64,000 nt of DNA from Gemmatimonadota bacterium (GCA_039591615.1 JBDHDH010000003.1:46670-110669), one strand, 5' to 3'. Counted from the first letter of the stretch, positions 9,603 through 21,206 are shown. Translations and numbers: made by a program. Notes: a model not told the origin generated them from the letters alone.

Positions 9603-10099
9603 CACGAGCCGAAGGGGAAGGGAAACCGCGGCAGTAGGTCCTGATAGTAGACGACCATCGTACCGATCACGGTGACGACCGCCACCAAGAGAATGCCAAA
9701 GAACTGCGTACCGAGACACCAAACCATCGCTGCCCTGTCTTCTTGCAGGTAGCTGGGCTTGCGGCCACTCCAGTACAGGAACAGTCCGTAGACCACCAGC
9801 AGCAGCGTGGCAAACACGACCTTGAGCAGCAGCCAGCCACCGACCGGGCCATCGAAGTGGGCGATCGTGCCGAAGAACCCGTCGCGCAGCCCAGCCACCA
9901 TGGATAGCGCCACAGTGACAACGCCAGCCCAGGTATTGGCTCGGGCAAACCGGTAGATCCTGTCTTCGAAGACGCTAGTTGCGAGCCCGCGCACCAGCCA
10001 CGTGTACATGGCGATGAATGCCATCACGAGGAAGGCGATATGCAGGTGTACGAAGAGGGGATGAAGAATCCTCATGTCACAGACGGGAACCTCCATCAC
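9602..10099 (-). CDS. Small polytopic membrane protein (DUF2231-like), coupled to ndh
   Basis: Four predicted TM helices and a His-rich start (ILHPLFVHLHIAF). The stop overlaps the ndh ATG (ATGA). The true start may be ATG 10075. Confidence 0.55.
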   Translation of the reverse strand: MMEVPVCDMRILHPLFVHLHIAFLVMAFIAMYTWLVRGLATSVFEDRIYRFARANTWAGVVTVALSMVAGLRDGFFGTIAHFDGPVGGWLLLKVVFATLLLVVYGLFLYWSGRKPSYLQEDRAAMVWCLGTQFFGILLVAVVTVIGTMVVYYQDLLPRFPFPFGS

Positions 10100-10144
10100 A
10101 CCGGCGAAGTTCCCACAGCGAGATGCTCACAGGCAGGATGCGCC

Positions 10145-10576
10145 GTGTGTAACCACCGTGATGCTCCCCGGCACGGCCAGTTGGGGCTGGCCATTCTCGT
10201 GATCCTCGTCACCACGGCGTGTGGCGCCAATGACGAAGCGCCCGGAGTGGTCGTCGCAGGTGCGCACACGTTGGTGGTCCGCATGACCGACGAGATGCGC
10301 TTCGTGCCCGAACACCCCATCATCGGTGTCGGAGATACCGTGATATGGACCAACAGCGGGCGCCTACCCCACACGTCGACGGATGAACCGGGTCGGGCGG
10401 CGGTGGCGGATCATACCGTCCTGCCTCCTGGGGCCGAGCCCTGGGATTCCGGAGTGGTCGATCCCGGTGGACGGTTCCGGCACGTCTTTCGCGTGTCCGG
10501 GGACTACACCTACCTCTGTCTGCTCCACGAAGCGGCTGGCATGGTGGGACGGATCACGGTGAAAAGAGAAGAGTGA
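10145..10576 (+). CDS. Cupredoxin (plastocyanin/pseudoazurin-like) lipoprotein
   Basis: Type-1 copper ligand pattern: H (LPHTS) then YLCLLHEAAGM (C-x2-H-x4-M). ORF 10040-10576 overlaps the divergent gene, so I trim it to GTG 10145. That start gives a signal peptide with lipobox TTAC. The start is uncertain. Confidence 0.7.
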   Translation: MCNHRDAPRHGQLGLAILVILVTTACGANDEAPGVVVAGAHTLVVRMTDEMRFVPEHPIIGVGDTVIWTNSGRLPHTSTDEPGRAAVADHTVLPPGAEPWDSGVVDPGGRFRHVFRVSGDYTYLCLLHEAAGMVGRITVKREE

Positions 10577-10613
10577 GCCGGGCGCCCACCAATGACGTCT
10601 GAAGCGCCAGACT

Positions 10614-10643
10614 TTGACGGCGCGTTGAGCCCTGCAGTAATCT
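10614..10643 (+). promoter_or_regulatory. Sigma70-like promoter candidate for the M42 peptidase gene (very short leader)
   Basis: TTGACG (10614-10619), an 18-nt spacer, then TAATCT (10638-10643). ATG 10654 would lie only a few nt from the predicted start site. Confidence 0.3.
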
Positions 10644-10653
10644 TCTCCGCACC

Positions 10654-11721
10654 ATGCGACAGATTTCGCTCGATTTTCTGACACGGCTCCTGGACGCACC
10701 CGGCCCCTCGGGCTTCGAGACGCTCCCGGCACGCGTGTGGCGGGAGGAGGTCTCGAGCTTTGCCTCGGTCGTCTCCACAGACGTCTCCGGGAACTCCATC
10801 GCCGGCGTGCAGCCTGAGGGCACCCCTCGAGTCATGTTCGCAGGCCACATCGATGAGATCGGCCTGATGATCGTGCACATCGACGATGACGGATACCTCT
10901 ATTTCTCCACCATCGGCGGCTGGGATGCGCAGGTATTGGTGGGGCAGCGGGTGCTCATCGCAACCAAGGACCAACCGGTCCCTGGGGTCATCGGTCGGAG
11001 GCCAGTCCACTTGATGGCGTCCGAGGACCGAGACAAGGTCGTGAAGCCAGCAGAACTGTGGATCGACATCGGGGCGACCGATAAGAAGACGGCGTCGAAG
11101 CGCGTACGGGTGGGAGATCCCGCGGTACTGGCGTCGTCGACGCTGGAGCTTCCGGGCAAACGGCTCATCTCCCGCAGCATCGACAACCGCATCGGCGCCT
11201 TCGTCGTCGCTGAGGCCTTGCGCCTGCTGGCCCGAAGAAAACCCAAGGCCGCGGTGTTCGCGGTGGCCACGACGCAGGAGGAGATTGGTTGGAGTGGTGG
11301 CGGCGCCCGAACCAGCGCGACGGGAATCGATCCTCAGGTCGCCATCGTCGTCGATGTTACCCATGCCACCGATCATCCCGGCGCCGAAAAGAAGCAGCAC
11401 GGTGATACAAAGCTGGGTGGAGGGCCGGTCCTGTCCCGAGGCTCGGCGGTGAACCCGGTAGTGTTCGAATTGCTCGTGGAGACGGCCGAAGCGGAGAGCA
11501 TTCCCTTTGCGCTACAGGCGGCGCCTCGGGACACAGGAACCGACGCGGACGCGATTCACACGGCGCGACAGGGGATTGCGACGGGATTGGTCTCGGTCCC
11601 CAACCGATACATGCACAGCCCAAACGAGATGGTCGATTTGAAGGACCTAGAACGCGCGGCGAAGCTACTGGCGGCCTTCGCTCGCCGAGTCACCGCAAGA
11701 ACTGACTTTACGCCTCGCTAG
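10654..11721 (+). CDS. M42 family aminopeptidase (FrvX/PepA-like)
   Basis: 355 aa with MFAGHIDEIGLMI, YLYFSTIGGWD and SRSIDNRIG, characteristic of M42 glutamyl aminopeptidases. Confidence 0.85.
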   Translation: MRQISLDFLTRLLDAPGPSGFETLPARVWREEVSSFASVVSTDVSGNSIAGVQPEGTPRVMFAGHIDEIGLMIVHIDDDGYLYFSTIGGWDAQVLVGQRVLIATKDQPVPGVIGRRPVHLMASEDRDKVVKPAELWIDIGATDKKTASKRVRVGDPAVLASSTLELPGKRLISRSIDNRIGAFVVAEALRLLARRKPKAAVFAVATTQEEIGWSGGGARTSATGIDPQVAIVVDVTHATDHPGAEKKQHGDTKLGGGPVLSRGSAVNPVVFELLVETAEAESIPFALQAAPRDTGTDADAIHTARQGIATGLVSVPNRYMHSPNEMVDLKDLERAAKLLAAFARRVTARTDFTPR

Positions 11722-13375
11722 TCGGAGCCGCCTCCGCGCGAGCCAGGGCGTCGTGGACGGCGTCTCGCACCTGCCGGTCGCGATCGTTGGCGAGGTCGAG
11801 CAGAATGGCTCGTGCCGCCCCCGCACCCGACAGCCCCAGCGCCTCGATGGCCGCCAGCCTGAGGGCGACGGGCTTCCGCTTGAAGAGCGATCCCCCGGTT
11901 TCCGCCACCTTCGTCAGAACCTGAATGGCCTCGGGCGTCCCGATCCGCCCCATCGCCCGGTAGTACTCACACAGGATCCCGGTATCCTCTTCGTTTTCCA
12001 CGGCCGCGACGAGGGGCATCACCAGCGCCGTCATGCCACGTCCACTGATGCCCTGCGCCACCGCAATTCTGACCTCGGCATCGGGATCTCGAATCAGCGC
12101 ACGGAGATGGGGAGCCGCCGCAGCGGTGCCGATGCCCGCCAGGGCCACGCCCGCTGACCGTCGCACCCTCGGGTCGGTGTGTCCCGCGGCCTTCCCGAGG
12201 GCCGGAACCGCCTCCTCGACGCGCAGCTCCCCCACCAAATCGCACATGTTGCGGATCACGTACCACTGATGATGGGAGAACATGCTGATGATGACTTCGA
12301 CGCCTGATTGCATTTGTTTGAGGGCTTGGAGGTACGCCCGGCGCTCTGCGTACGTCGGCGCAGCCACCAACTTGTCCAGCAAGACCTGGGTACCACGCTT
12401 GCCAACGAACTGCATGAAATGCACGACATCTTTGGCGTAGAGCTCGTCTACGATGAGACTCGCGAACCGCTGCACCGCTTCCTGCGTCGAGATGCGTTGA
12501 AGGGCAATGGTATACGCTCGGTGGGTGTCCTCGTCCGGGGCCTTGTCGCGCTCCCGTACGAGCACCGTTGCCTCCTCGAGGGCCTCCTGAACCTGACCCC
12601 TTTCCACCATGCGCACGACCCGTTTGGCGGTCTCGTTCAGTCGCCTCATGATGTCCAGGTCTTCGGAGACACCTTCGGGCTGCGGGATGTCGATGTCATC
12701 CTCGCTCTCCGGTGCCTCCGCCGGCAACATGTCCGGCATGGGAGCACCGTCTGCGGAGAGCACGACCCCCCGCTGCCACGATTCGGGCTCCTCCGCCGCT
12801 GCCTCGGGCACCTCGGCGGCCGGCTCCGCCGGTTCCGTGCCAGACACCGCCGCGTCTTTCGCCGGCGCCGGCTGCTCCTCGGGCTGTGCCATTTCGGCAA
12901 GCTCATCCAAGACCCCCGCAGCCTTCAATGCGTCCGTCACACGAACCGCGGGCACCGAGCCACGACCCCGACGTGCCTGCTCGGCCGTCACGAGACCGAT
13001 CGTAAGCGCATTGGCATCCCGGAGCGTTCCTTCCACACCACCCGCAGCCTTCAAGTCGTCCGGACTGCGGGCCAACGCGAAGAGAAGCGTGAGGAGGTCC
13101 AGTGCTGATGCCTTATGTGCGAAGAACACGGCCGCGATCCCGTGCGTGCGCAGTTGTTGCGAAAACGCGGTGGCGAAGGGCGTTTCGGGAGGGATCGCCA
13201 CCCCCTCGATGGTGAGCGTACTGCCGTAGCGGAGTCTCACTGTCGCGCTGCGTTGCGACGTCAGCTCAACGAGGGACCGCAGGGCGGCTTTGTGGTCGTC
13301 GACGGCGTCTGGCGAGCGCCGGAGCATATCGACGCTGCGGCCAAGCAACACCGCGAACTTGTGTTCGAAGCGCAT
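11708..13375 (-). CDS. HEAT-repeat protein, paralog 2, with an acidic linker
   Basis: ORF 11708-13414 trimmed to ATG 13375 (MRFEHKFAVLLGRS...), which aligns with the paralog 1 start. It has an N-terminal shared module, a Glu/Pro/Ala-rich linker, and C-terminal HEAT/PBS-lyase-like repeats (HTDPRVRRSAGVALAGIG, DPDAEVRIAVAQG, DRDRQVRDAV). Confidence 0.7.
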   Translation of the reverse strand: MRFEHKFAVLLGRSVDMLRRSPDAVDDHKAALRSLVELTSQRSATVRLRYGSTLTIEGVAIPPETPFATAFSQQLRTHGIAAVFFAHKASALDLLTLLFALARSPDDLKAAGGVEGTLRDANALTIGLVTAEQARRGRGSVPAVRVTDALKAAGVLDELAEMAQPEEQPAPAKDAAVSGTEPAEPAAEVPEAAAEEPESWQRGVVLSADGAPMPDMLPAEAPESEDDIDIPQPEGVSEDLDIMRRLNETAKRVVRMVERGQVQEALEEATVLVRERDKAPDEDTHRAYTIALQRISTQEAVQRFASLIVDELYAKDVVHFMQFVGKRGTQVLLDKLVAAPTYAERRAYLQALKQMQSGVEVIISMFSHHQWYVIRNMCDLVGELRVEEAVPALGKAAGHTDPRVRRSAGVALAGIGTAAAAPHLRALIRDPDAEVRIAVAQGISGRGMTALVMPLVAAVENEEDTGILCEYYRAMGRIGTPEAIQVLTKVAETGGSLFKRKPVALRLAAIEALGLSGAGAARAILLDLANDRDRQVRDAVHDALARAEAAPTSEA

Positions 13376-13423
13376 GGGTTGAGGTAACTTACGATCACCC
13401 GGCCGAGGCGGCAAACCACTTCG

Positions 13424-14887
13424 TCACATTTCGGCGTCCCCCTCGTCGGCCTCGCCGCGCATATCGGCAAGGGCCATGCGGGCAGCCTCCTGCACCTCCC
13501 GATCGCGATCCCGGACCAGGGCCTCGAGAAAACCGATCGCCTTGGGGCCTCCCATTTCCCGCAGCGCGTCGATGGCGGCCAGCCGGAGCGGCTTGGGCTT
13601 CCGCCCCAGGAACCAGCGGCCGGATTGGGCGATGTTGGTCAGCGTACGGAGGGCGTCCGTCGTGCCTATACGACCCAAGGCTCGTATGTACTCGCCTGCG
13701 ACGAGCTGATCCTTCTCCTGCTCCAGCGCCGCCGTGAGGGGACGAACGAGGCCGCCGGCCTGCGGACCCTTTACGGCATTCAGAACCAGCGACCGCAGCC
13801 GTGCGTCTCCCTGGACAACGATGCGAGCGAGATGCTCCAGCGCCGCCGGGGTCGCCACCTTCGCCACGGCCACTGCGGCCGCCTGGCGCACCCGTCCGTC
13901 CTTGTGCTCTAGCCCCAGGGCGAGCTCCGGCACCACCTCACCGATGCCGAGCTCCCCAACGAGCCAAGCGGCGTTTCGGACCACATACCAGTCGGGGTGG
14001 CGCAACATGGAGACCATGAGGGAATAGCCCTCCTTCACACCTCGTAACGACGCGAACGCCTTCCGTCGCTCGTCCATCGTGGGCAGCGAGTTAATCTGAT
14101 CGACGAGCACCTTGGTGCCATCCGGACCAGCGCGGCGTAGCACTCGTGAGGCAGCGTTTCCATACCGCGAGTCGTTCAACATCCGCGTGACGCGTTGCAG
14201 GATCCCACGGGTGAGCGATCGTCTCAGCTCGATGCCGTAGCAGCGACGCACGTGGTCGCTGCGAGCTCGGTCCTCCAAGGCGATCACAGCGGACAAGGCT
14301 TGAACTGCCTCTTCGAGCCGGTCTCCGTCAAATGCGTCCCGGATCTCGGCACCGACGTCATTCAATCGCTCCAGCACGTCATCCCCATGCGGTCCCCCCG
14401 CAAGCCGCCGCATAGCGACGCCCAGCCCGGTCATTGCCGGAGCGGCTGGAGACGTGGATCCCGTGCGCCCGTTCGCGGTCGCTTCGGGCTCATCGAGTCC
14501 GCCTAGCGAAACGAATACACCAGTACCACGCCATTCGTCAGCGACGTATTCGGCCAGCTCGGCAACGTGATTCTCGTCTGGCTCCGCAGCGAGCCGTTTC
14601 AAGAAGTTGAGTACCTCCGCCGGCGGAGCACCCTGCGAGAACGAAACCGTAGTCACGCGGTGTACTTCGAGGAGTGCAGTGAGGTCGGGTATCAGAGGCA
14701 GCGCGGGTGAAACCGCACTGCCTTCCACCACCAACTCACCGTCCCGCACGGCCACCGTGACGGATCCGAGCTTGGTGAGGGCAACGAGCGCCCGCAGCAC
14801 GACTTTTCGTTGGGACACGTCAGGCGACGTACGGAACAGCTGGGCGGCGCGCGCCAGAGTCACCGCGAAATGATCAGGATTGATCAT
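13424..14887 (-). CDS. HEAT-repeat protein, paralog 1
   Basis: 487 aa. ATG 14887 lies 14 nt inside the 3' end of the upstream ABC ATPase gene. HEAT-like repeats include HKDGRVRQAAAVAVAKV and DRDREVQEAARMAL. The N-terminal module is shared with paralog 2. Confidence 0.7.
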   Translation of the reverse strand: MINPDHFAVTLARAAQLFRTSPDVSQRKVVLRALVALTKLGSVTVAVRDGELVVEGSAVSPALPLIPDLTALLEVHRVTTVSFSQGAPPAEVLNFLKRLAAEPDENHVAELAEYVADEWRGTGVFVSLGGLDEPEATANGRTGSTSPAAPAMTGLGVAMRRLAGGPHGDDVLERLNDVGAEIRDAFDGDRLEEAVQALSAVIALEDRARSDHVRRCYGIELRRSLTRGILQRVTRMLNDSRYGNAASRVLRRAGPDGTKVLVDQINSLPTMDERRKAFASLRGVKEGYSLMVSMLRHPDWYVVRNAAWLVGELGIGEVVPELALGLEHKDGRVRQAAAVAVAKVATPAALEHLARIVVQGDARLRSLVLNAVKGPQAGGLVRPLTAALEQEKDQLVAGEYIRALGRIGTTDALRTLTNIAQSGRWFLGRKPKPLRLAAIDALREMGGPKAIGFLEALVRDRDREVQEAARMALADMRGEADEGDAEM

Positions 14888-15725
14888 CGGAGAAGCGCGA
14901 AGTTACAGACCCCTCGAGGTCCCGGCAACGCTCGGCGAGCACGGTGGCGACGGCGTCGAACCGCACAGGCACTCCCGGGAAGCGGAGCGCTCGGCTGAGG
15001 CACGCCGCCGGGGGCATCTCGAGGCCGAGCGCCGCAAGGCGTGCCGCATCCAATATCAAGTCGCGACACGCCCCGTCGTAGACCACTCCGCCCTCTTCCA
15101 GAACGAGCGTGCGTTCGACGCTGTTTGCGACAAACTCGAGATCGTGCGAGACCGCGAGGACGGCGACACCACGCGCCGCCGCATCCTGGGCGACCCGGCA
15201 GACGACACCCCGTCCATCACGATCGAGCCCGAGTGTCGGTTCATCCAGAACGAGAACCTGCGATGCCTGCGCGAGGGCCGCCGCCAGAGCGACGAGTTTA
15301 CGCTGCGGCGGCGGTAGATCGTAAGGATGTGCCGACGCCAGCGCCCCCAGACGGACCTCCTCCAGGGCGCTAGCGGCGAGCGCCCTGGCATCCGACTCAT
15401 CAAGACCCCGCTGACGGGGTGCAAAAGCCACTTCATCCAACACGGTGCGCGCGAAAAGTTGCTGATCGGCGTGCTGAAACACATAGGCTACCCAGTTGGC
15501 CACTTCCTCGGGTGCCTTCCCCGCCGTGGCCTGCTCTCCAATCCATACCGTACCGCGAGTGGGATGGAGGATGGCGGCCAGGAGCTTCGTCAGCGTCGTT
15601 TTGCCGACACCGTTTCGCCCCAGGAGACCCACCGTCTCTCCCAGCCGGATGGTCAACGTCACCCCCCGCAGCACGGCGTGATCATGATAGGAGAACCAGA
15701 CGTCTTCCAGCCGGATCGCGGTCAC
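14874..15725 (-). CDS. ECF transporter ATPase subunit (EcfA'-like)
   Basis: Walker A GRNGVGKTT, Walker B VLVLDEPT and H-loop VSHD are canonical. The signature position reads LPPPQ instead of LSGGQ. ATGA overlap with the upstream ATPase gene. Confidence 0.85.
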   Translation of the reverse strand: MTAIRLEDVWFSYHDHAVLRGVTLTIRLGETVGLLGRNGVGKTTLTKLLAAILHPTRGTVWIGEQATAGKAPEEVANWVAYVFQHADQQLFARTVLDEVAFAPRQRGLDESDARALAASALEEVRLGALASAHPYDLPPPQRKLVALAAALAQASQVLVLDEPTLGLDRDGRGVVCRVAQDAAARGVAVLAVSHDLEFVANSVERTLVLEEGGVVYDGACRDLILDAARLAALGLEMPPAACLSRALRFPGVPVRFDAVATVLAERCRDLEGSVTSRFSDDQS

Positions 15726-16540
15726 AGCGAGTAGCGGGCGACGGCGGCCTCAACGGTAAGGGGGAAGGGCCCGGGACAGCCAGCGCGGTGACCGAGCGTG
15801 GCGATTGTCGTGCTCAGGCCCGACCGCACGACGTGAGCCGTGGCCAACACATCGTCCGGTGCCCCATCCGCCACCAGATGGCCGCGTTCCATGACCACGA
15901 TCCGATCGGTAACAGTGATGGCGCGATCGATGTCCGTACTGGCGAGAATCACGGTGCCCTGGTCCGCAAGTCGGGGTAACAGATCGTAAACGGCCCTCGC
16001 CCCCTCGGGGTCGAGCTCCTGGACCGGCTCGTCCAACAGACAGACGCTGGGTTCCATGGCAACCACCGCAGCCAGCATCACGCGCTGGAGCTCGCCGCCG
16101 GACAGCGACCGCGGATCCCGACCCGCCAGATGGTTGACGTCGAGGAGCGCGAGCGCTTGGACGACTGCCTGAGCAATGCGCCCACGTTCCCACCCCAGGT
16201 TGGCCGGACCGAAAGCCACCTCGTCCCACACGGTGAATGCCATTCCCGACAGCTGCGTCCATGGCGTCGGGAACAGCAACCCAATCCGCCCTGCCAATGC
16301 CGCGGTTCCCACCGGGCTCGCCGGGTCGCGCCCCAACGTGAGGACCTCCCCCTCCCGGTCGCCGCCCGTCGATCGAGGGGCCAGCCCTGCGATGGCTAGG
16401 AGCAGCGTGCTGCACCCCGCCCCGAGCTGTCCGGTCACGAGTGTCACCTCGCGGGGTCTGAACTCCGCACAGACGTCACTCAAGGCCGGTTCCAACCCGC
16501 CGGAGTAGCGGAAGGTCAGCCTGTCGAGAAGAACGCTCAT
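15722..16540 (-). CDS. ECF transporter ATPase subunit (EcfA-like) with a degenerate Walker A
   Basis: Signature LSGGELQR and Walker B LLDEP are canonical. Walker A reads GQLGAGCST (Lys replaced by Cys) and the H-loop position reads ASTD. ATGA overlaps on both sides. Confidence 0.8.
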   Translation of the reverse strand: MSVLLDRLTFRYSGGLEPALSDVCAEFRPREVTLVTGQLGAGCSTLLLAIAGLAPRSTGGDREGEVLTLGRDPASPVGTAALAGRIGLLFPTPWTQLSGMAFTVWDEVAFGPANLGWERGRIAQAVVQALALLDVNHLAGRDPRSLSGGELQRVMLAAVVAMEPSVCLLDEPVQELDPEGARAVYDLLPRLADQGTVILASTDIDRAITVTDRIVVMERGHLVADGAPDDVLATAHVVRSGLSTTIATLGHRAGCPGPFPLTVEAAVARYSL

Positions 16541-17247
16541 TTCAGCACCTGTAGTAGCACCGCAACCAGCGTGCCCACGGCCATGACCCAGCGGGCGCTG
16601 CGATCAGCCATGGTGTCAACCGGGGGGTCCAGCGGGGTGCGGCGCACGGCCCGCCCCCCGCCCCGGGACTCGAGCGCCATCGCTCGATCGTCGACTTCAG
16701 CCAATGCACCCAACACCAGCGGGACCGTCAGGGGTACGATGGCGCCTATCCGGCGGAATAGGGAGCCCCGAACGCGAAGACCCCGACATCGCTGTGCTTC
16801 GAGGATCTGGCGTCCTCGATCGCGCAAGCGCGGAACCGCCTGAAGTGTCGCGGAGAGTAGGTACGCGAAGGCGAACGGCACGCGGCGGGCGACCAGGGCG
16901 TCCACCAGCCGAGCCGGATGGATCGTGACCAGGAGCATCAGGAAACCGAGCACCATGGTCCCGATGCGGCCACCGAAGGTGAGGGCACGAAGGGGTTCAC
17001 CACCGAGCAGCCCGTGGATCAGCAGCAGGAAGCCCCAGAAGGGCGCAACGACCACCGCCGCTGGCAGGAGTATACGTGCCAAGCCCGCGGCGATGGCAAG
17101 CGTGACCAGCGCGGCTCCCAGTACGAGAGGCCCACCAGGCGCTGGCAGCACGAAGGCCAGGACCGCCACGCTCCCGACCAGGGTGAGATTGGTGAACGGA
17201 TGCGCACGATGGAGAATCCCGTGGCCGGCCTGGTATTCGACGATCAT
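16537..17247 (-). CDS. ECF transporter transmembrane (T) component, CbiQ/EcfT-like
   Basis: 236-aa polytopic protein with Arg-containing coupling-helix segments (AVPRLRDRGRQILEAQRCRGL). It sits between the S component and the ATPases, with 4-nt overlaps. Confidence 0.75.
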   Translation of the reverse strand: MIVEYQAGHGILHRAHPFTNLTLVGSVAVLAFVLPAPGGPLVLGAALVTLAIAAGLARILLPAAVVVAPFWGFLLLIHGLLGGEPLRALTFGGRIGTMVLGFLMLLVTIHPARLVDALVARRVPFAFAYLLSATLQAVPRLRDRGRQILEAQRCRGLRVRGSLFRRIGAIVPLTVPLVLGALAEVDDRAMALESRGGGRAVRRTPLDPPVDTMADRSARWVMAVGTLVAVLLQVLK

Positions 17248-17819
17248 GCCTCACCGATTGTGCGACGCGCGCCTGGGAATCGGGCCGCCATTCGCGCGGG
17301 GGCCGACACGAGGATGGTTCGCACCAGCAGGAGTGTGACCGTCTTGTCGAGGAGATCGGCGACCAGGCCGCCGAGGTAGACCGCCCAGCCTAACGTCAGC
17401 CCCATGCCACGCAACAGGGCGACGAAGACCGTGGCACCTCCTCCCGTCACTCCTCCAAAAACAAAGAACGATATGGGCCAGGACATCGACGCGGCGAGCA
17501 GTCCCAGCCCGAGTCCGGCAATCAGCGTCAGCCAAGGGCGTCGAAAGACGCCCACATGCGCGGCTAGACCTGCATAGGCCGCCACCGCGAGCTGGACGGG
17601 GAGGAACCACAGCCACGTGAAGTTGCCACTGACGACGGTGAAGACGAGCTGTGAGAAAAAGCCGGTGGCCAAGGCGGCCCAGGTTCCCACCAGGCAGGCG
17701 ACCAGTACCGTCCCAACCGTGTCGAGAAAGAGCGGAAGATGCGTCACCGCGGCAATCTGGCCCAGCGCCAGATTGATCCCGACCGCGAGCGGAATCAGCG
17801 CGAGGAGATGCGGGGACAT
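17244..17819 (-). CDS. ECF transporter substrate-specific (S) component, substrate unknown
   Basis: 191 aa with about 6 TM helices and the LDTVGTVLVACLVG motif typical of ECF S components. It is the first gene of the operon. Confidence 0.65.
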   Translation of the reverse strand: MSPHLLALIPLAVGINLALGQIAAVTHLPLFLDTVGTVLVACLVGTWAALATGFFSQLVFTVVSGNFTWLWFLPVQLAVAAYAGLAAHVGVFRRPWLTLIAGLGLGLLAASMSWPISFFVFGGVTGGGATVFVALLRGMGLTLGWAVYLGGLVADLLDKTVTLLLVRTILVSAPARMAARFPGARRTIGEA

Positions 17820-17944
17820 AGTGGCGTGTTCATGGTTAGATTTGTCATCACCTGTCGAGGCTCGATCCCAGCAGTCGACCTAAGATAGATCAAGGGAACC
17901 GCAACGAAATAGAACGGCAAGACAGCGAGACAAGATTGACAACC

Positions 17945-19225
17945 ATGAGACTCCCAGCTCAGCGGACACTAGCGGTCGTTTGCCTTGCATTCAGCGTGGC
18001 GTGTACAGCGGCGGCCCAACACGCCGATGACCGCCCCTCCACTGCCGAAGACATTCGGGACCATCTGGCGTTCCTCGCAGCGGATGTCCTCGAAGGACGA
18101 GGGGTCGGCACCGCCGGGCTCGATTCCTCCGCCGCCTACATCGCGGGTCAGTTCGCGCGGATCGGGCTCGAACCCGCTGGCACCGAGGGCTTCTTCCAGT
18201 CCTTCGTGGTCGACGAAACCGCCACCGCGGCCGCGCACGCTGGCGTCGGAAACCTACCGGTCCAGAACGTAGTGGGTGTCCTGCCAGGGAGGGGCCGGCT
18301 CGCCGGGCAGGCCGTGGTGGTCGGCGCTCATTACGATCACCTCGGCTACGGGGGGTTTGGAAGCCTCGACCCGGATAGCACCGGCGTGGTGCACAACGGC
18401 GCCGACGACAACGCCTCGGGCACGGTCGCGCTCATCGAAACGGCCCGCCTCCTCGCTCAGCGAACCGCCACAGACGTGCGGACAGTCGTCTTCGTCGCCT
18501 TCACAGCCGAGGAGCTGGGCCTGATCGGCTCATCGCACTACGTGAAACACCCCGTCGTTCCGGGGGATTCCACTCTCGCCATGATCAACTTCGACATGGT
18601 GGGCAGGCTCCGGGATGGCAAGGTGCTAGCGATGGGGACCGGATCCGCCCTAGAGTTCCCAGCCCTCCTGGAAGACGTGAATGGTCTTCATGGTCTCACC
18701 GTCAATCTGGTCGGGGATCCATGGGGGAGGAGCGATCACATCTCGTTTTACGGCGACTCTATCCCCGTTGTCCACCTGTTCACCGATAACCATGAGGATT
18801 ATCACCGCACCACCGACGACTGGCCGAAGATCAACGTAGAGGGAATCGGCCGCATCGTCGACTTCGCCGCCGACCTGGCGTGGACTCTGGCGCTGCGGGA
18901 GGCACCCCTGACCTACGTCGATGTCGGCCCACCTCCGCGGGTGGCGGGCGGGGGGTATGGGGCGTACCTGGGCACCATACCCGACATGAGCGAGTCACCC
19001 GGCGGCGTCCGCCTCACGGGTGTCCGCACCGGGAGTCCAGCGGAGGCAGCTGGCCTCCGAAAGGGCGACATCCTGATCCAACTTGGCGACCACGCAGTCG
19101 GCAACCTCTACGACATGACCAACGCCCTCCGGGCGCACAAGCCGGGGGATGGCGTGGCCATCGTCGTGCTCCGGGACGGGGAACGGTTCGAGACGTTCGC
19201 TACGCTGGGAAGGCGCGGTGGTTGA
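17945..19225 (+). CDS. Secreted M28 family peptidase with a C-terminal PDZ domain
   Basis: ORF 17936-19225; ATG 17945 gives the signal peptide MRLPAQRTLAVVCLAFSVACTAAAQ. M28 motifs GAHYDHLG, NGADDNASG and FTAEELGLIGS are present. The PDZ-like tail reads GVRTGSPAEAAGLRKGDILIQLG. Confidence 0.85.
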   Translation: MRLPAQRTLAVVCLAFSVACTAAAQHADDRPSTAEDIRDHLAFLAADVLEGRGVGTAGLDSSAAYIAGQFARIGLEPAGTEGFFQSFVVDETATAAAHAGVGNLPVQNVVGVLPGRGRLAGQAVVVGAHYDHLGYGGFGSLDPDSTGVVHNGADDNASGTVALIETARLLAQRTATDVRTVVFVAFTAEELGLIGSSHYVKHPVVPGDSTLAMINFDMVGRLRDGKVLAMGTGSALEFPALLEDVNGLHGLTVNLVGDPWGRSDHISFYGDSIPVVHLFTDNHEDYHRTTDDWPKINVEGIGRIVDFAADLAWTLALREAPLTYVDVGPPPRVAGGGYGAYLGTIPDMSESPGGVRLTGVRTGSPAEAAGLRKGDILIQLGDHAVGNLYDMTNALRAHKPGDGVAIVVLRDGERFETFATLGRRGG

Positions 19226-19679
19226 GCCCGTCTTGAACGCCGACGCTGTCGTCAGGGCCCTCCACGCCGCGTTCTGCCGAGGGGCGTCCCGTCAACAACT
19301 GCTACAGCTCGCTGCCAGTCGCATACGGGAAGCCGGCCCCCCTCATACGGGTGTCTATCTCTATATGCTGCACGCGGACGAACTGGTCCTCGAAGCCTTT
19401 GACGGACACCCTTCCGATCTGACCCGGATCCCCGTCGGGACCGGTGTGTGCGGACGCGCCGCGGCCGAGGGACGCGACATCAATGTTCCAGACGTCTCGC
19501 AAGCGGAAGGCTATCTCGCGTGCAGCGTCGACACCCGTTCCGAGCTGGTGGTTCTCATCCGGCGCCATGCCGAGATTTTGGGTGAGATCGACATCGACAG
19601 CGACCTCCCCAATGGTTTCTCCATGGTGGAAGAAGAGGCTGTCAGACAGGTGGCCGACGGGCTGGCGACACTCCTCTGA
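19218..19679 (+). CDS. GAF domain protein, free methionine-(R)-sulfoxide reductase-like (YebR/MsrC family)
   Basis: ORF 19149-19679 trimmed to GTG 19218, which overlaps the M28 stop. The motif block GTGVCGRAAAEG...VPDV...GYLACS...SELVVLI...ILGEIDIDS matches fRMsr-type GAF proteins. Confidence 0.75.
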   Translation: MVEPVLNADAVVRALHAAFCRGASRQQLLQLAASRIREAGPPHTGVYLYMLHADELVLEAFDGHPSDLTRIPVGTGVCGRAAAEGRDINVPDVSQAEGYLACSVDTRSELVVLIRRHAEILGEIDIDSDLPNGFSMVEEEAVRQVADGLATLL

Positions 19680-19695
19680 TCATTAGCCGCCACGG

Positions 19696-20541
19696 GTGTC
19701 CAACCCCACCGAAGAGACGGTCACGGTCCGGGGCGTCGAGATCTTCACACGCACGGTGGGCACCGGCCCGGACGTCGTCGTACTCCACGGCGGGCCCGGA
19801 GCCCATCATGACTATCTCCTTCCGCAATACGACGCCCTCGCGGAGGGGCGGCGGCTGCGCTACTACGACCAGCGGGGTGGTGGTCGATCGGCCGCTCCTC
19901 GCCGCCGCGTTCCCGTTGGCTGGCGTGAGCACGTCGGCGACCTCCATGCGCTCCTGGACTATTGGGATCTCTCCCCGGCGACCTTGCTGGGACATTCGTG
20001 GGGCGGCCTCTTGGCCTTGCTCTACGCGATCAATCATCGGCACCGGGTTGGCCGGCTCGCACTCGTTTCGCCAGCCCCAGCCAGCGCGGCTGAACGCCGC
20101 ACCTTCGAGCGCCGCTTCGCGCAGCGGATGCGGCACCCCACGATCCAGACGCGCCGGACACGACTGCGGCAGTCTGATCTCCGAGAACGAGATCCTGCCA
20201 CGTACGATCGGCGGATGTTCGAGCTCTCGGTGGCGGGCTACTTCGCCGACGTTGATCAGGCCCGGGATCTCACGCCCTTTCGTGTGACGAAGCGCACACA
20301 GCGAGCCGTTTGGGCTAGCCTGGGTGAATACGATCTGTCCGACGATTTGCGAGAGCTCGTCGTACCGACGCTGGTCGGGCATGGTGTGCACGATCCGATC
20401 CCGCTATCGGCGGCCCGTCGGATCGCCGGTCTCATGGATGCCCGTTTCGTGACCTTCGAGCATTCCGGGCACGCGCCCCACGTCGAGGAACGCCGACGAT
20501 TCATGGAAGTGCTCGACGGGTTTCTTCCGCCCCTATCATGA
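19696..20541 (+). CDS. Alpha/beta hydrolase, prolyl-iminopeptidase-like (S33)
   Basis: GTG start. It contains HGGPG, YDQRGGGRS and the nucleophile elbow GHSWGG, with a late HSGH. Confidence 0.8.
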   Translation: MSNPTEETVTVRGVEIFTRTVGTGPDVVVLHGGPGAHHDYLLPQYDALAEGRRLRYYDQRGGGRSAAPRRRVPVGWREHVGDLHALLDYWDLSPATLLGHSWGGLLALLYAINHRHRVGRLALVSPAPASAAERRTFERRFAQRMRHPTIQTRRTRLRQSDLRERDPATYDRRMFELSVAGYFADVDQARDLTPFRVTKRTQRAVWASLGEYDLSDDLRELVVPTLVGHGVHDPIPLSAARRIAGLMDARFVTFEHSGHAPHVEERRRFMEVLDGFLPPLS

Positions 20542-21206
20542 GCCGTTCGACCCCGTTCGACCTCACGTTTGCCGAGCTGGCCACGGCGCGCTTTCCGGTG
20601 ATTCGAGATGAAGCCGCGACGTCGCAAGCGGACCTCAGCGACCGGGCACGGTTCGCCAGGCTCCCATCAGTGCAACGAATTCTCGCCGACCTGGCCGACC
20701 CCGGCACCGTCGATGAGCGACCCGACGCCGCCGACGAGTACCTCACCAGCCTGTTCGTCGCATACCGCTTCTGGGAAGCGGGCCAGCATGTGATCGCGGT
20801 CGAACGTAGAGATTTGGAGCCACCACTGGACCCGACGCGAGTGCCGGCGCTTCCCCGAATCCCTCGCGGTGCCTGTTATCTGCAGCTCCCCGAGCACTGG
20901 ATCTGGGCCCAGATCGATCCCGCAGCCCCTCACGAGCCGGTGGATGGCGTGTTCGTGACGCGATCCGAAGCACCTGGCGAGGTCACGGTCCTCGCGGTGC
21001 TCGGACTCCGGCCGGAGCGCGGAGGGTACAGCCAACTCGCCGTGCGGGTAACGCCCGCCCAGTTCGAGGTCGTCCCTCGAGAAGTCCGCTCGCCGCCGTT
21101 CGAGCCCGTGGTGGCGGGCGGCCGGGAAGCAGGTCTCAAGTCACTCGTCTCTGTGGCTGAGCTCCTGTTGCTGGTGCAACTCGCGCTCGCTCGAGCGGGC
21201 GAGTAG
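20538..21206 (+). CDS. Hypothetical protein (222 aa)
   Basis: ATGA overlap with the upstream hydrolase gene; ends 1-16 nt before polX. I recognise no family. Confidence 0.55.
   Translation: MSRSTPFDLTFAELATARFPVIRDEAATSQADLSDRARFARLPSVQRILADLADPGTVDERPDAADEYLTSLFVAYRFWEAGQHVIAVERRDLEPPLDPTRVPALPRIPRGACYLQLPEHWIWAQIDPAAPHEPVDGVFVTRSEAPGEVTVLAVLGLRPERGGYSQLAVRVTPAQFEVVPREVRSPPFEPVVAGGREAGLKSLVSVAELLLLVQLALARAGE

Follow-up and report, generated by a model that had tools for sequence, protein, structure and literature searches.

A 64,000-nucleotide stretch of DNA from a Gemmatimonadota bacterium (GCA_039591615.1 JBDHDH010000003.1:46670-110669; hereafter the window) carries on its minus strand an operon for an importer assigned to the energy-coupling factor (ECF) type of ATP-binding cassette (ABC) transporters. 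The two ATPases of this operon, A1 (272 residues, 15722-16540) and A2 (283 residues, 14874-15725), deviate from consensus at four motifs, and all four deviations map to the same predicted composite ATP site: A1 lacks the Walker A lysine, the Q-loop glutamine and the H-loop histidine, and A2 lacks the signature that would face them. The other composite site is predicted to be fully consensus. In this dedicated, vitamin-type ECF importer the two ATPases therefore probably form an obligate heterodimer in which only one ATP site is catalytic.

Four deviations share one composite ATP site

Motif positions were set by residue-by-residue alignment to solved EcfA/EcfA' chains, and both open reading frames (ORFs) were found on the minus strand where a preliminary description of the window had placed them. 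The Walker A motif of A1 reads GQLGAGCST (16406-16432) and aligns to GHNGSGKST of L. brevis EcfA, with the lysine replaced by Cys43; a check of the DNA gave a TGC codon at 16412-16414. The Q-loop region FPTPWTQ aligns with FQNPDNQ, and Pro91 (16268-16270) occupies the position of the glutamine in FQNP. Similarly, the H-loop region ASTDID aligns with ITHDID, placing Thr202 (15935-15937; ASTD against ITHD) at the histidine. A1 retains Tyr12 at the adenine-stacking position of the A-loop (16505-16507; invariant in 79/79 orthologues), the signature LSGGE (16091-16105, aligned to LSGGQ), which would feed the consensus site, and the Walker B motif LLDEP (16025-16039), in which Asp170 and Glu171 are kept.

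The catalytic motifs of A2 are complete. Its Walker A motif, GRNGVGKTT (15594-15620), is canonical and contains Lys42; the pattern GxxGxGK[ST]T is present in 79/79 sequences. Gln84 of the Q-loop (FQHA, 15474-15476) is matched by FQ in 78/79 sequences, the remaining one having a gap, and the Walker B motif VLDEP (15237-15251), with Asp161 and Glu162, by xLDEP in 77/79, the rest being gaps. His194 of the H-loop (VSHD, 15144-15146) is histidine in 76/79 sequences, with one glutamine and two gaps. The signature is the deviant element: LPPPQ (15303-15317, codons CTA CCG CCG CCG CAG in the DNA) aligns exactly to LSGGQ of EcfA2.

These alignments bear out what the preliminary description had reported for A1, namely a cysteine for lysine in Walker A (an assignment to which the codon adds), ASTD in place of SHD at the H-loop, and a canonical signature and Walker B motif. 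They agree equally with its account of A2 as canonical in Walker A, Walker B and H-loop with an LPPPQ signature, and the Q-loop of A2 is canonical as well. Neither motif can be restored by shifting the alignment, because lysine is wholly absent from A1 (which has 21 arginines; the family median is one lysine per protein) and SGG is absent from A2.

In an ABC dimer, one nucleotide-binding domain (NBD) supplies the Walker A and B motifs, the Q-loop and the H-loop of a given ATP site, and its partner supplies the signature and the D-loop (PMC3971661). Because the Walker A, Q-loop and H-loop of one NBD are thus paired with the signature of its partner, the four deviations would share a single composite site. 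Three of them had been assigned to one site in the preliminary description; that assignment stands, but its list was incomplete, the replacement of the Q-loop glutamine by Pro91 being a fourth defect in the same place. Of the side chains normally needed for hydrolysis, only the Walker B Asp-Glu pair is left in the site built on the A1 pocket.

The degenerate site is conserved in Gemmatimonadota

Across GTDB species, each represented by one genome, at least 575 candidate loci were found. The best 80 were all from Gemmatimonadota, and both ATPases could be extracted from 78 of them. The gene order in these loci is S-T-A1-A2, where S and T are the membrane components described below; among 67 assessable loci, the T gene was found upstream in 67 and the S gene in 64. 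For A1, residue frequencies were also counted in a broader family, taken as the 120 best clusters at 90% identity (48-100% identity to A1) out of 1015 matches with E up to 1e-10.

None of the three lost residues of A1 was found in any of the 120 clusters. The Walker A lysine position is occupied by cysteine in 77, alanine in 27, threonine in eight, serine in five, glycine in two and arginine in one, and never by lysine. Proline (95), serine (16) and alanine (9) account for the Q-loop position, with no glutamine, and the H-loop position holds threonine (85), serine (22), alanine (5) or other residues, with no histidine. The elements around these positions are strongly retained: LSGG is present in 120/120 clusters (LSGGE in 76/79 orthologue sequences), the Walker B aspartate in 120/120 and the glutamate in 116/120, and the P-loop keeps Gly37 and Gly42 in 120/120, Ser44 in 116/120 and Thr45 in 117/120.

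The A2 proteins of the 78 orthologous operons have the reciprocal pattern. The lysine, the glutamine and the Asp-Glu pair are present in all ungapped sequences and the histidine in all but one, and LSGGQ was never found among these 78 operons. The deviant states are therefore fixed, in 120/120 homologue clusters for A1 and in 78/78 orthologous operons. A covariation survey of orthologous operons, which the preliminary description had proposed, thus found the states fixed together within the Gemmatimonadota clade. Mean pairwise identity was 0.53 for the A1 orthologue set and 0.51 for the A2 set; A1 and A2 diverge at an equal rate. To judge from these sequences, the degeneracy of the site is a conserved design and not decay.

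The residues that replace the lost motifs are themselves conserved. In A1, the Q-loop substitute L-P-T-P-W-T-Q (16256-16285, residues 86-95) includes Trp94, which is found in 105/120 clusters. In A2, the segment at 15297-15323 (residues 135-143) reads Y-D-L-P-[PA]-[AP]-x-R-K, and the derived consensus at the signature position extends to Y-D-L-P-[PA]-[AP]-x-R-K-L, with the first proline (Pro138) conserved at 87%. Conservation of both substitute motifs hints at a new interface under selection, and not at free drift.

The operon encodes a dedicated ECF importer

The operon is tightly packed and runs S, T, A1, A2 and then two genes for HEAT-repeat proteins, HEAT1 and HEAT2. Overlaps of 4 nucleotides occur at the S/T, T/A1 and A1/A2 junctions, and A2 and HEAT1 overlap by 14 nucleotides. 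The 272- and 283-residue ATPases recur in independent gene calls on three JGI metagenome contigs with identical A1. The A1 protein itself was found on seven contigs, and the three that were read come from three different samples.

The T component (EcfT/CbiQ; 236 residues, 16537-17247, minus strand) matches Pfam CbiQ with E=9.5e-18 and has two xRG coupling motifs, the first (QRCRG) around residues 153-155 and the second (ESRG) around residues 194-196. Among 72 aligned T sequences the first motif is conserved, and the second keeps its arginine, with the glycine replaced in some common variants. The S component, a putative substrate-binding membrane subunit (191 residues, 17244-17819, minus strand), is a hydrophobic protein with multiple hydrophobic segments. 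It appears to be related to ECF_S_CD3073, matching the NCBIfam entry 'CD3073 family putative ECF transporter S component' below equivalog level (E=3e-28; 98.6 bits against an equivalog cut-off of 180 bits). Pfam scans of eight proteins encoded in and beside the operon revealed no solute-binding-protein domain, and a search of 10000-21000 against Rfam, with E up to 0.1, returned no riboswitch or other family.

Both ATPases have ECF ATPases as their top NCBIfam and PDB matches. The best NCBIfam models for A1 were ECF_ATPase_2 and ECF_ATPase_1 (142 and 141 bits); A2 scored 186 and 171 bits (ECF_ATPase_2, E=8e-55). The curated equivalog cut-offs for the housekeeping EcfA and EcfA' (TIGR04520 and TIGR04521) are 330 and 315 bits. 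With scores far below these cut-offs, and with an S gene inside the operon, A1 and A2 fall outside the housekeeping group II EcfA and EcfA'. The closest PDB chains were EcfA1 for A1 (9kym_A/4huq_B) and EcfA2 for A2 (4mki_B, 4huq_A). An AlphaFold2 (AF2) model of A1 was of high confidence (predicted local distance difference test, pLDDT, 96; predicted template modelling score, pTM, 0.92). In fold comparison it superposed from end to end, and so with its C-terminal helices, on CbiO/EcfA/EcfA' chains at template modelling (TM) scores of 0.82-0.86, and the alignment spanned about 280 columns with CbiO/EcfA chains, compared with about 230-250 with other NBDs.

The claim that these genes encode an ECF transporter ATPase pair is thus upheld, because a CbiQ/EcfT gene with xRG motifs and an S-like gene are adjacent and because both ATPases are nearest to EcfA/EcfA', A1 by predicted fold also. 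Homology and gene order identify the locus as an ECF-type ABC importer of the dedicated (group-I-style) kind, with gene order S-T-A1-A2.

Coupled deviations in fused two-domain relatives

Among representatives clustered at 50% identity, an exhaustive HMMER search identified the nearest relatives outside the clade. They are fused proteins with two NBDs, about 520-600 residues long, from Archaea, Firmicutes and Chloroflexi, among them Halomarina pelagica WP_254546729.1, Oribacterium WP_090816176.1 and Kouleothrix HNP87567.1. A protein from Gemmatimonadales, MDX2262007.1, is both fused and Lys-less. Ten of the fused relatives were scanned; ECF ATPase models were the best NCBIfam matches, and matched the N- and C-terminal halves alike.

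Motif states were read from an alignment of 288 NBDs and scored for 141 fused proteins. In 115/141, the counterpart of A1 is the N-terminal NBD and that of A2 the C-terminal one. The C-terminal signature, which is the counterpart of the deviant signature of A2, is non-consensus in 117/141, and 106 of the 141 have exactly one non-consensus signature. Among those 106, 62 deviations of the lysine, glutamine, Asp-Glu pair or histidine lie in the partner NBD, which places them in the same composite site as the deviant signature, and one lies in the NBD with the deviant signature itself. In 41 of these 106 proteins, the N-terminal NBD that faces the deviant signature has a changed Q-loop, H-loop, Walker B motif or lysine. 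The deviant C-terminal signatures are varied and include LSRGQ, LSKGE, LTKGE, LGLSE, LELSD, LPPAL and others, and in one fused Halomarina ATPase (P0129) the Walker B pair reads QQ.

The frequency of catalytic-motif deviation climbs with the severity of the change in the facing signature. Composite sites facing a canonical signature deviate in 4/152 cases, those facing a mild one (xS.G[QE], a class with members, LSRGQ for example, that may still permit catalysis) in 20/78, and those facing a severe one in 29/52. The difference between severe and canonical facing signatures is significant within the 150 best A1 matches, taken without phylogenetic correction (Fisher p = 6e-17). The coupling of deviations proposed for A1 and A2 therefore extends to the wider fused clade. 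Loss of the Walker A lysine is the rarest step, with five deviations among 130 non-canonical sites, the residue being lost or changed in 5/141 proteins.

These patterns suggest that degenerate ATP sites are widespread across dedicated ECF systems. The trait is not peculiar to this ATPase pair, being widespread among ECF-type ATPases in sequence databases. Because lysine loss is the rarest step among the fused relatives, the Gemmatimonadota clade, in which the lysine, glutamine, histidine and signature are all gone, would represent the extreme end of a graded series. Judging by deviation frequency, the signature would degenerate first, the Q-loop and H-loop next, and the lysine last.

A probable single-site motor and the points that weigh against it

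The arrangement considered most probable is one in which the active site is formed by Lys42, Gln84, Asp161-Glu162 and His194 of A2 and is closed by LSGGE and the D-loop of A1. The opposite site, formed by the P-loop, Q-loop and H-loop of A1 with the signature of A2, would not hydrolyse ATP because Lys, Gln, His and Ser-Gly-Gly have been lost. ATP binding and hydrolysis at the consensus site would close and then reopen the NBD dimer, and this movement would shift the two coupling helices of EcfT such that the S component is released and re-docked (toppling). A cycle that leads from NBD closure through the coupling helices to S release and re-docking has been described for group II ECF modules (PMC10368641). 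The degenerate side would serve as a fixed hinge. As ECF NBDs are joined by a C-terminal four-helix bundle (PMC4245157), such a hinge could work without bound ATP to hold its two sides together.

A separate matter is the retention of a nucleotide, bound but not turned over, in the A1 pocket, for which the chances may be put at even or slightly better. Retention is favoured because Tyr12, the P-loop Gly/Ser/Thr and the Walker B Asp-Glu pair are kept, and because the deviant sites of the fungal exporters Cdr1 and Pdr5 provide a precedent, nucleotide being still bound there and not hydrolysed. The occupation of position 43 of A1 by small residues also favours retention.

Several points weigh against this arrangement. 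Some concern the pocket: loss of the Walker A lysine usually weakens ATP binding strongly, so the A1 pocket may be empty, and the place of the signature that should clamp the gamma-phosphate is taken by a Pro/Ala motif. Glu171 of A1 is retained though the lysine, glutamine and histidine are lost, which is the opposite of the usual degenerate site of exporters, and the predicted loss of catalysis itself draws on textbook roles of the missing residues. The comparison with fused relatives draws on the 150 best A1 matches, a sample that is neither random nor phylogenetically corrected, and the score of the S component lies under its curated cut-off. The most direct objection is functional. In the group II module of L. 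delbrueckii, a Walker B Glu-to-Gln substitution in either subunit abolishes both ATPase activity and transport (PMC10368641). A one-site ECF motor contradicts this only tested case, and compensations may be needed.

The alternative that survives best keeps the single-site motor but leaves the degenerate pocket empty, as a pure protein-protein hinge whose P-loop, Tyr12 and Walker B motif are retained for folding and cross-talk. This is possible, if doubtful. It agrees with the absence of the Walker A lysine in 120/120 clusters and of any lysine in A1, with a Pro/Ala-rich motif in A2 that cannot clamp a gamma-phosphate, and with the nucleotide-independent dimerisation of ECF NBDs through their C-terminal helices. 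However, a scaffold would not obviously need an invariant Tyr12 or near-invariant P-loop Gly/Ser/Thr and Walker B Asp, and the Lys-to-Cys deviant sites of Cdr1 and Pdr5 still bind nucleotide.

Repurposing of the dead pocket as a regulatory or docking site, either for a nucleotide (as an energy-charge sensor) or for a HEAT protein, is unlikely. If it were true, the locus would encode a five-component ECF system with a cytoplasmic partner that gates uptake or receives cargo, and would be a natural case of ECF toppling on one ATP hydrolysed per cycle. Likewise unlikely is the form in which the pocket or the A1 surface serves regulation through ligand or redox sensing by Cys43, or through HEAT docking that gates uptake. 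Its attractions are that cysteine is the majority residue at position 43 (77/120), that the substitute motifs PTPWTQ in A1 and YDLP[PA][AP] in A2 are conserved, and that a lineage-restricted HEAT gene overlaps the stop of A2 and directly follows A2 in 56/67 orthologous loci. Thiol chemistry at position 43 is nevertheless not required, because Ala, Thr, Ser or Gly stands there in 42/120 clusters, and a redox-active Cys43 is for this reason unlikely to have been the purpose of the change. In addition, 11/67 loci with the degenerate site have no HEAT gene, and the HEAT model described below resembles only generic repeat proteins.

It is very improbable that both sites are catalytic, with other residues, such as an arginine from A1 or A2, replacing the missing lysine, glutamine and histidine. 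Asp170, Glu171 and the P-loop backbone of A1 are kept, and arginine is frequent at A1 position 38 (51/120). That position is not conserved, however, and is glutamine in this A1; four independent catalytic elements are gone together, the facing signature included; and among the motif columns, which were the ones inspected, there is no conserved basic substitute for Lys43.

The notion that A1 is a decaying, non-functional gene (a pseudogene) or an assembly artefact, prompted by the loss of three hallmark catalytic residues, can be rejected: the ORF is intact and translationally coupled, its fold is confidently predicted, the same protein recurs in independent samples, LSGGE, Walker B, D-loop and A-loop are kept in the 120 clusters and the 78 species-level operons, and A1 diverges no faster than A2.

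Comparison with known ATPases

The nearest characterised relatives are the EcfA-EcfA'-EcfT modules of group II (L. brevis 4huq/4hzu/4rfs; L. delbrueckii 5jsz/8bms; T. maritima 4hlu), with homologous ATPases in which A1 corresponds to EcfA1 and A2 to EcfA2. Also shared with these modules are the NBD fold with C-terminal helices (in the A1 model) and a T component of CbiQ type that carries two xRG motifs. In the group II models both sites are consensus and required, whereas here one site is without Lys, Gln, His and signature, and the group II module is shared, whereas here it is dedicated, with the S gene within the operon. The fused ECF ATPases compared above, to whose kind the YkoD type belongs, deviate in the same composite site as A1/A2. 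They differ in being one polypeptide instead of two and in that most keep the Walker A lysine that is lost here.

A parallel to the A1 pocket is found in the fungal transporters Pdr5 and Cdr1, in which the deviant nucleotide-binding site 1 (NBS1) likewise has Walker A Lys replaced by Cys, a retained D-loop and conserved deviant motifs, and in which the signature of the partner NBD is deviant (LNVEQ) as that of A2 is. These are, however, eukaryotic full-length ABCG-type exporters with a non-homologous membrane part, and their Walker B glutamate is replaced whereas that of A1 is kept. The resemblance is best regarded as an analogy only, and not as membership. The heterodimeric type IV exporters TM287/288, TmrAB, TAP1/2 and CFTR, a group in which degenerate sites are textbook knowledge, also combine one consensus and one degenerate composite site with coherent substitutions. 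They keep the Walker A lysine that A1 has lost, and ATP is tightly bound at their degenerate site; in these exporters it is typically the Walker B glutamate and the H-loop that are changed, and the membrane fold is different from that of ECF transporters.

Asymmetry is, as the preliminary description had said, well known in some ABC exporters, but it has also been noted in importers: RbsA and NupO, type II importers of B. subtilis with fused NBDs, have one site without Walker A Lys and a deviant signature (PMC11466899). They differ from the present system in belonging to the CUT2 family, in using solute-binding proteins, in having the degenerate Walker A in the second NBD, and in not being of ECF type. 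The ECF-like ATPases ABCI10/11 of chloroplasts have been described as fully canonical.

That such asymmetry is undescribed for ECF importers, as was also proposed, agrees with the literature so far as its full text is searchable, most subscription journals lying outside. Within that searchable full text, which includes few subscription journals, no paper was found to connect ECF transporters or EcfA with ATP sites that are degenerate, asymmetric or non-canonical; one general review treats both subjects separately. Nothing relevant on CD3073 or on duplicated or fused ECF ATPases was found in the searchable full text. Reviews of ECF transporters are silent on degenerate sites, and the word 'degenerate' is absent from PMC4245157. 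The degenerate site is thus a real and conserved trait shared by a large subset of ECF motors, and one that is explained by a well-known principle. Its occurrence in ECF motors has apparently not been described before, and an earlier mention in a subscription journal is possible.

HEAT-repeat proteins and neighbouring genes

HEAT1 (487 residues, 13424-14887, minus strand) and HEAT2 (568 residues by longest ORF, 11708-13414, minus strand) both match Pfam HEAT_2 and are paralogues, with 38% identity over 311 residues. The HEAT1 family comprised 53 matches, and nearly all of those with a named source were from Gemmatimonadota. In an AF2 model of HEAT1 (pLDDT 85), a disordered linker connects an N-terminal alpha/beta domain (residues 1-128) with a HEAT solenoid. 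Foldseek comparison of this model with the PDB returned only generic HEAT/ARM and designed-repeat matches and gave no functional lead. Because the HEAT gene is missing from the 11 degenerate-site loci noted above, it is not required for degeneracy. HEAT1 is co-transcribed and frequently syntenic with the ECF genes, and may be regarded as a candidate component only.

The operon is flanked by a divergent gene for an M28 peptidase with a PDZ domain (17936-19225, plus strand) and by a convergent gene for an M42 glutamyl aminopeptidase (10654-11721, plus strand), whose end overlaps HEAT2; these neighbours might point to a substrate related to peptides or amino acids. A sub-clade of 15 of the orthologous loci (L025, L026, L029, L030, L035, L040, L043, L045, L047, L049, L053, L054, L064, L067 and L072) has an extra ABC ATPase gene (at about 0-900 in locus coordinates), which lies upstream of S at a distance of about 1.5-2 kb and in the same orientation. 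Its product is 32-34% identical to A1 or A2.

Implications

There is as yet no agreed number of ATP molecules for one round of ECF transport, nor agreement on whether the two sites act sequentially. The operons described here constitute a large clade of intact ECF motors with one degenerate site, with 78 species-level genomes examined and at least 575 candidate loci. Together with the fused intermediates, they form a comparative system for single-site drive, for a nucleotide that is bound and not hydrolysed, and for the order in which a site is lost. The clade could show whether ECF pumps run on one ATP site, and the assumption that asymmetric ATP sites are mainly a trait of exporters needs correcting.

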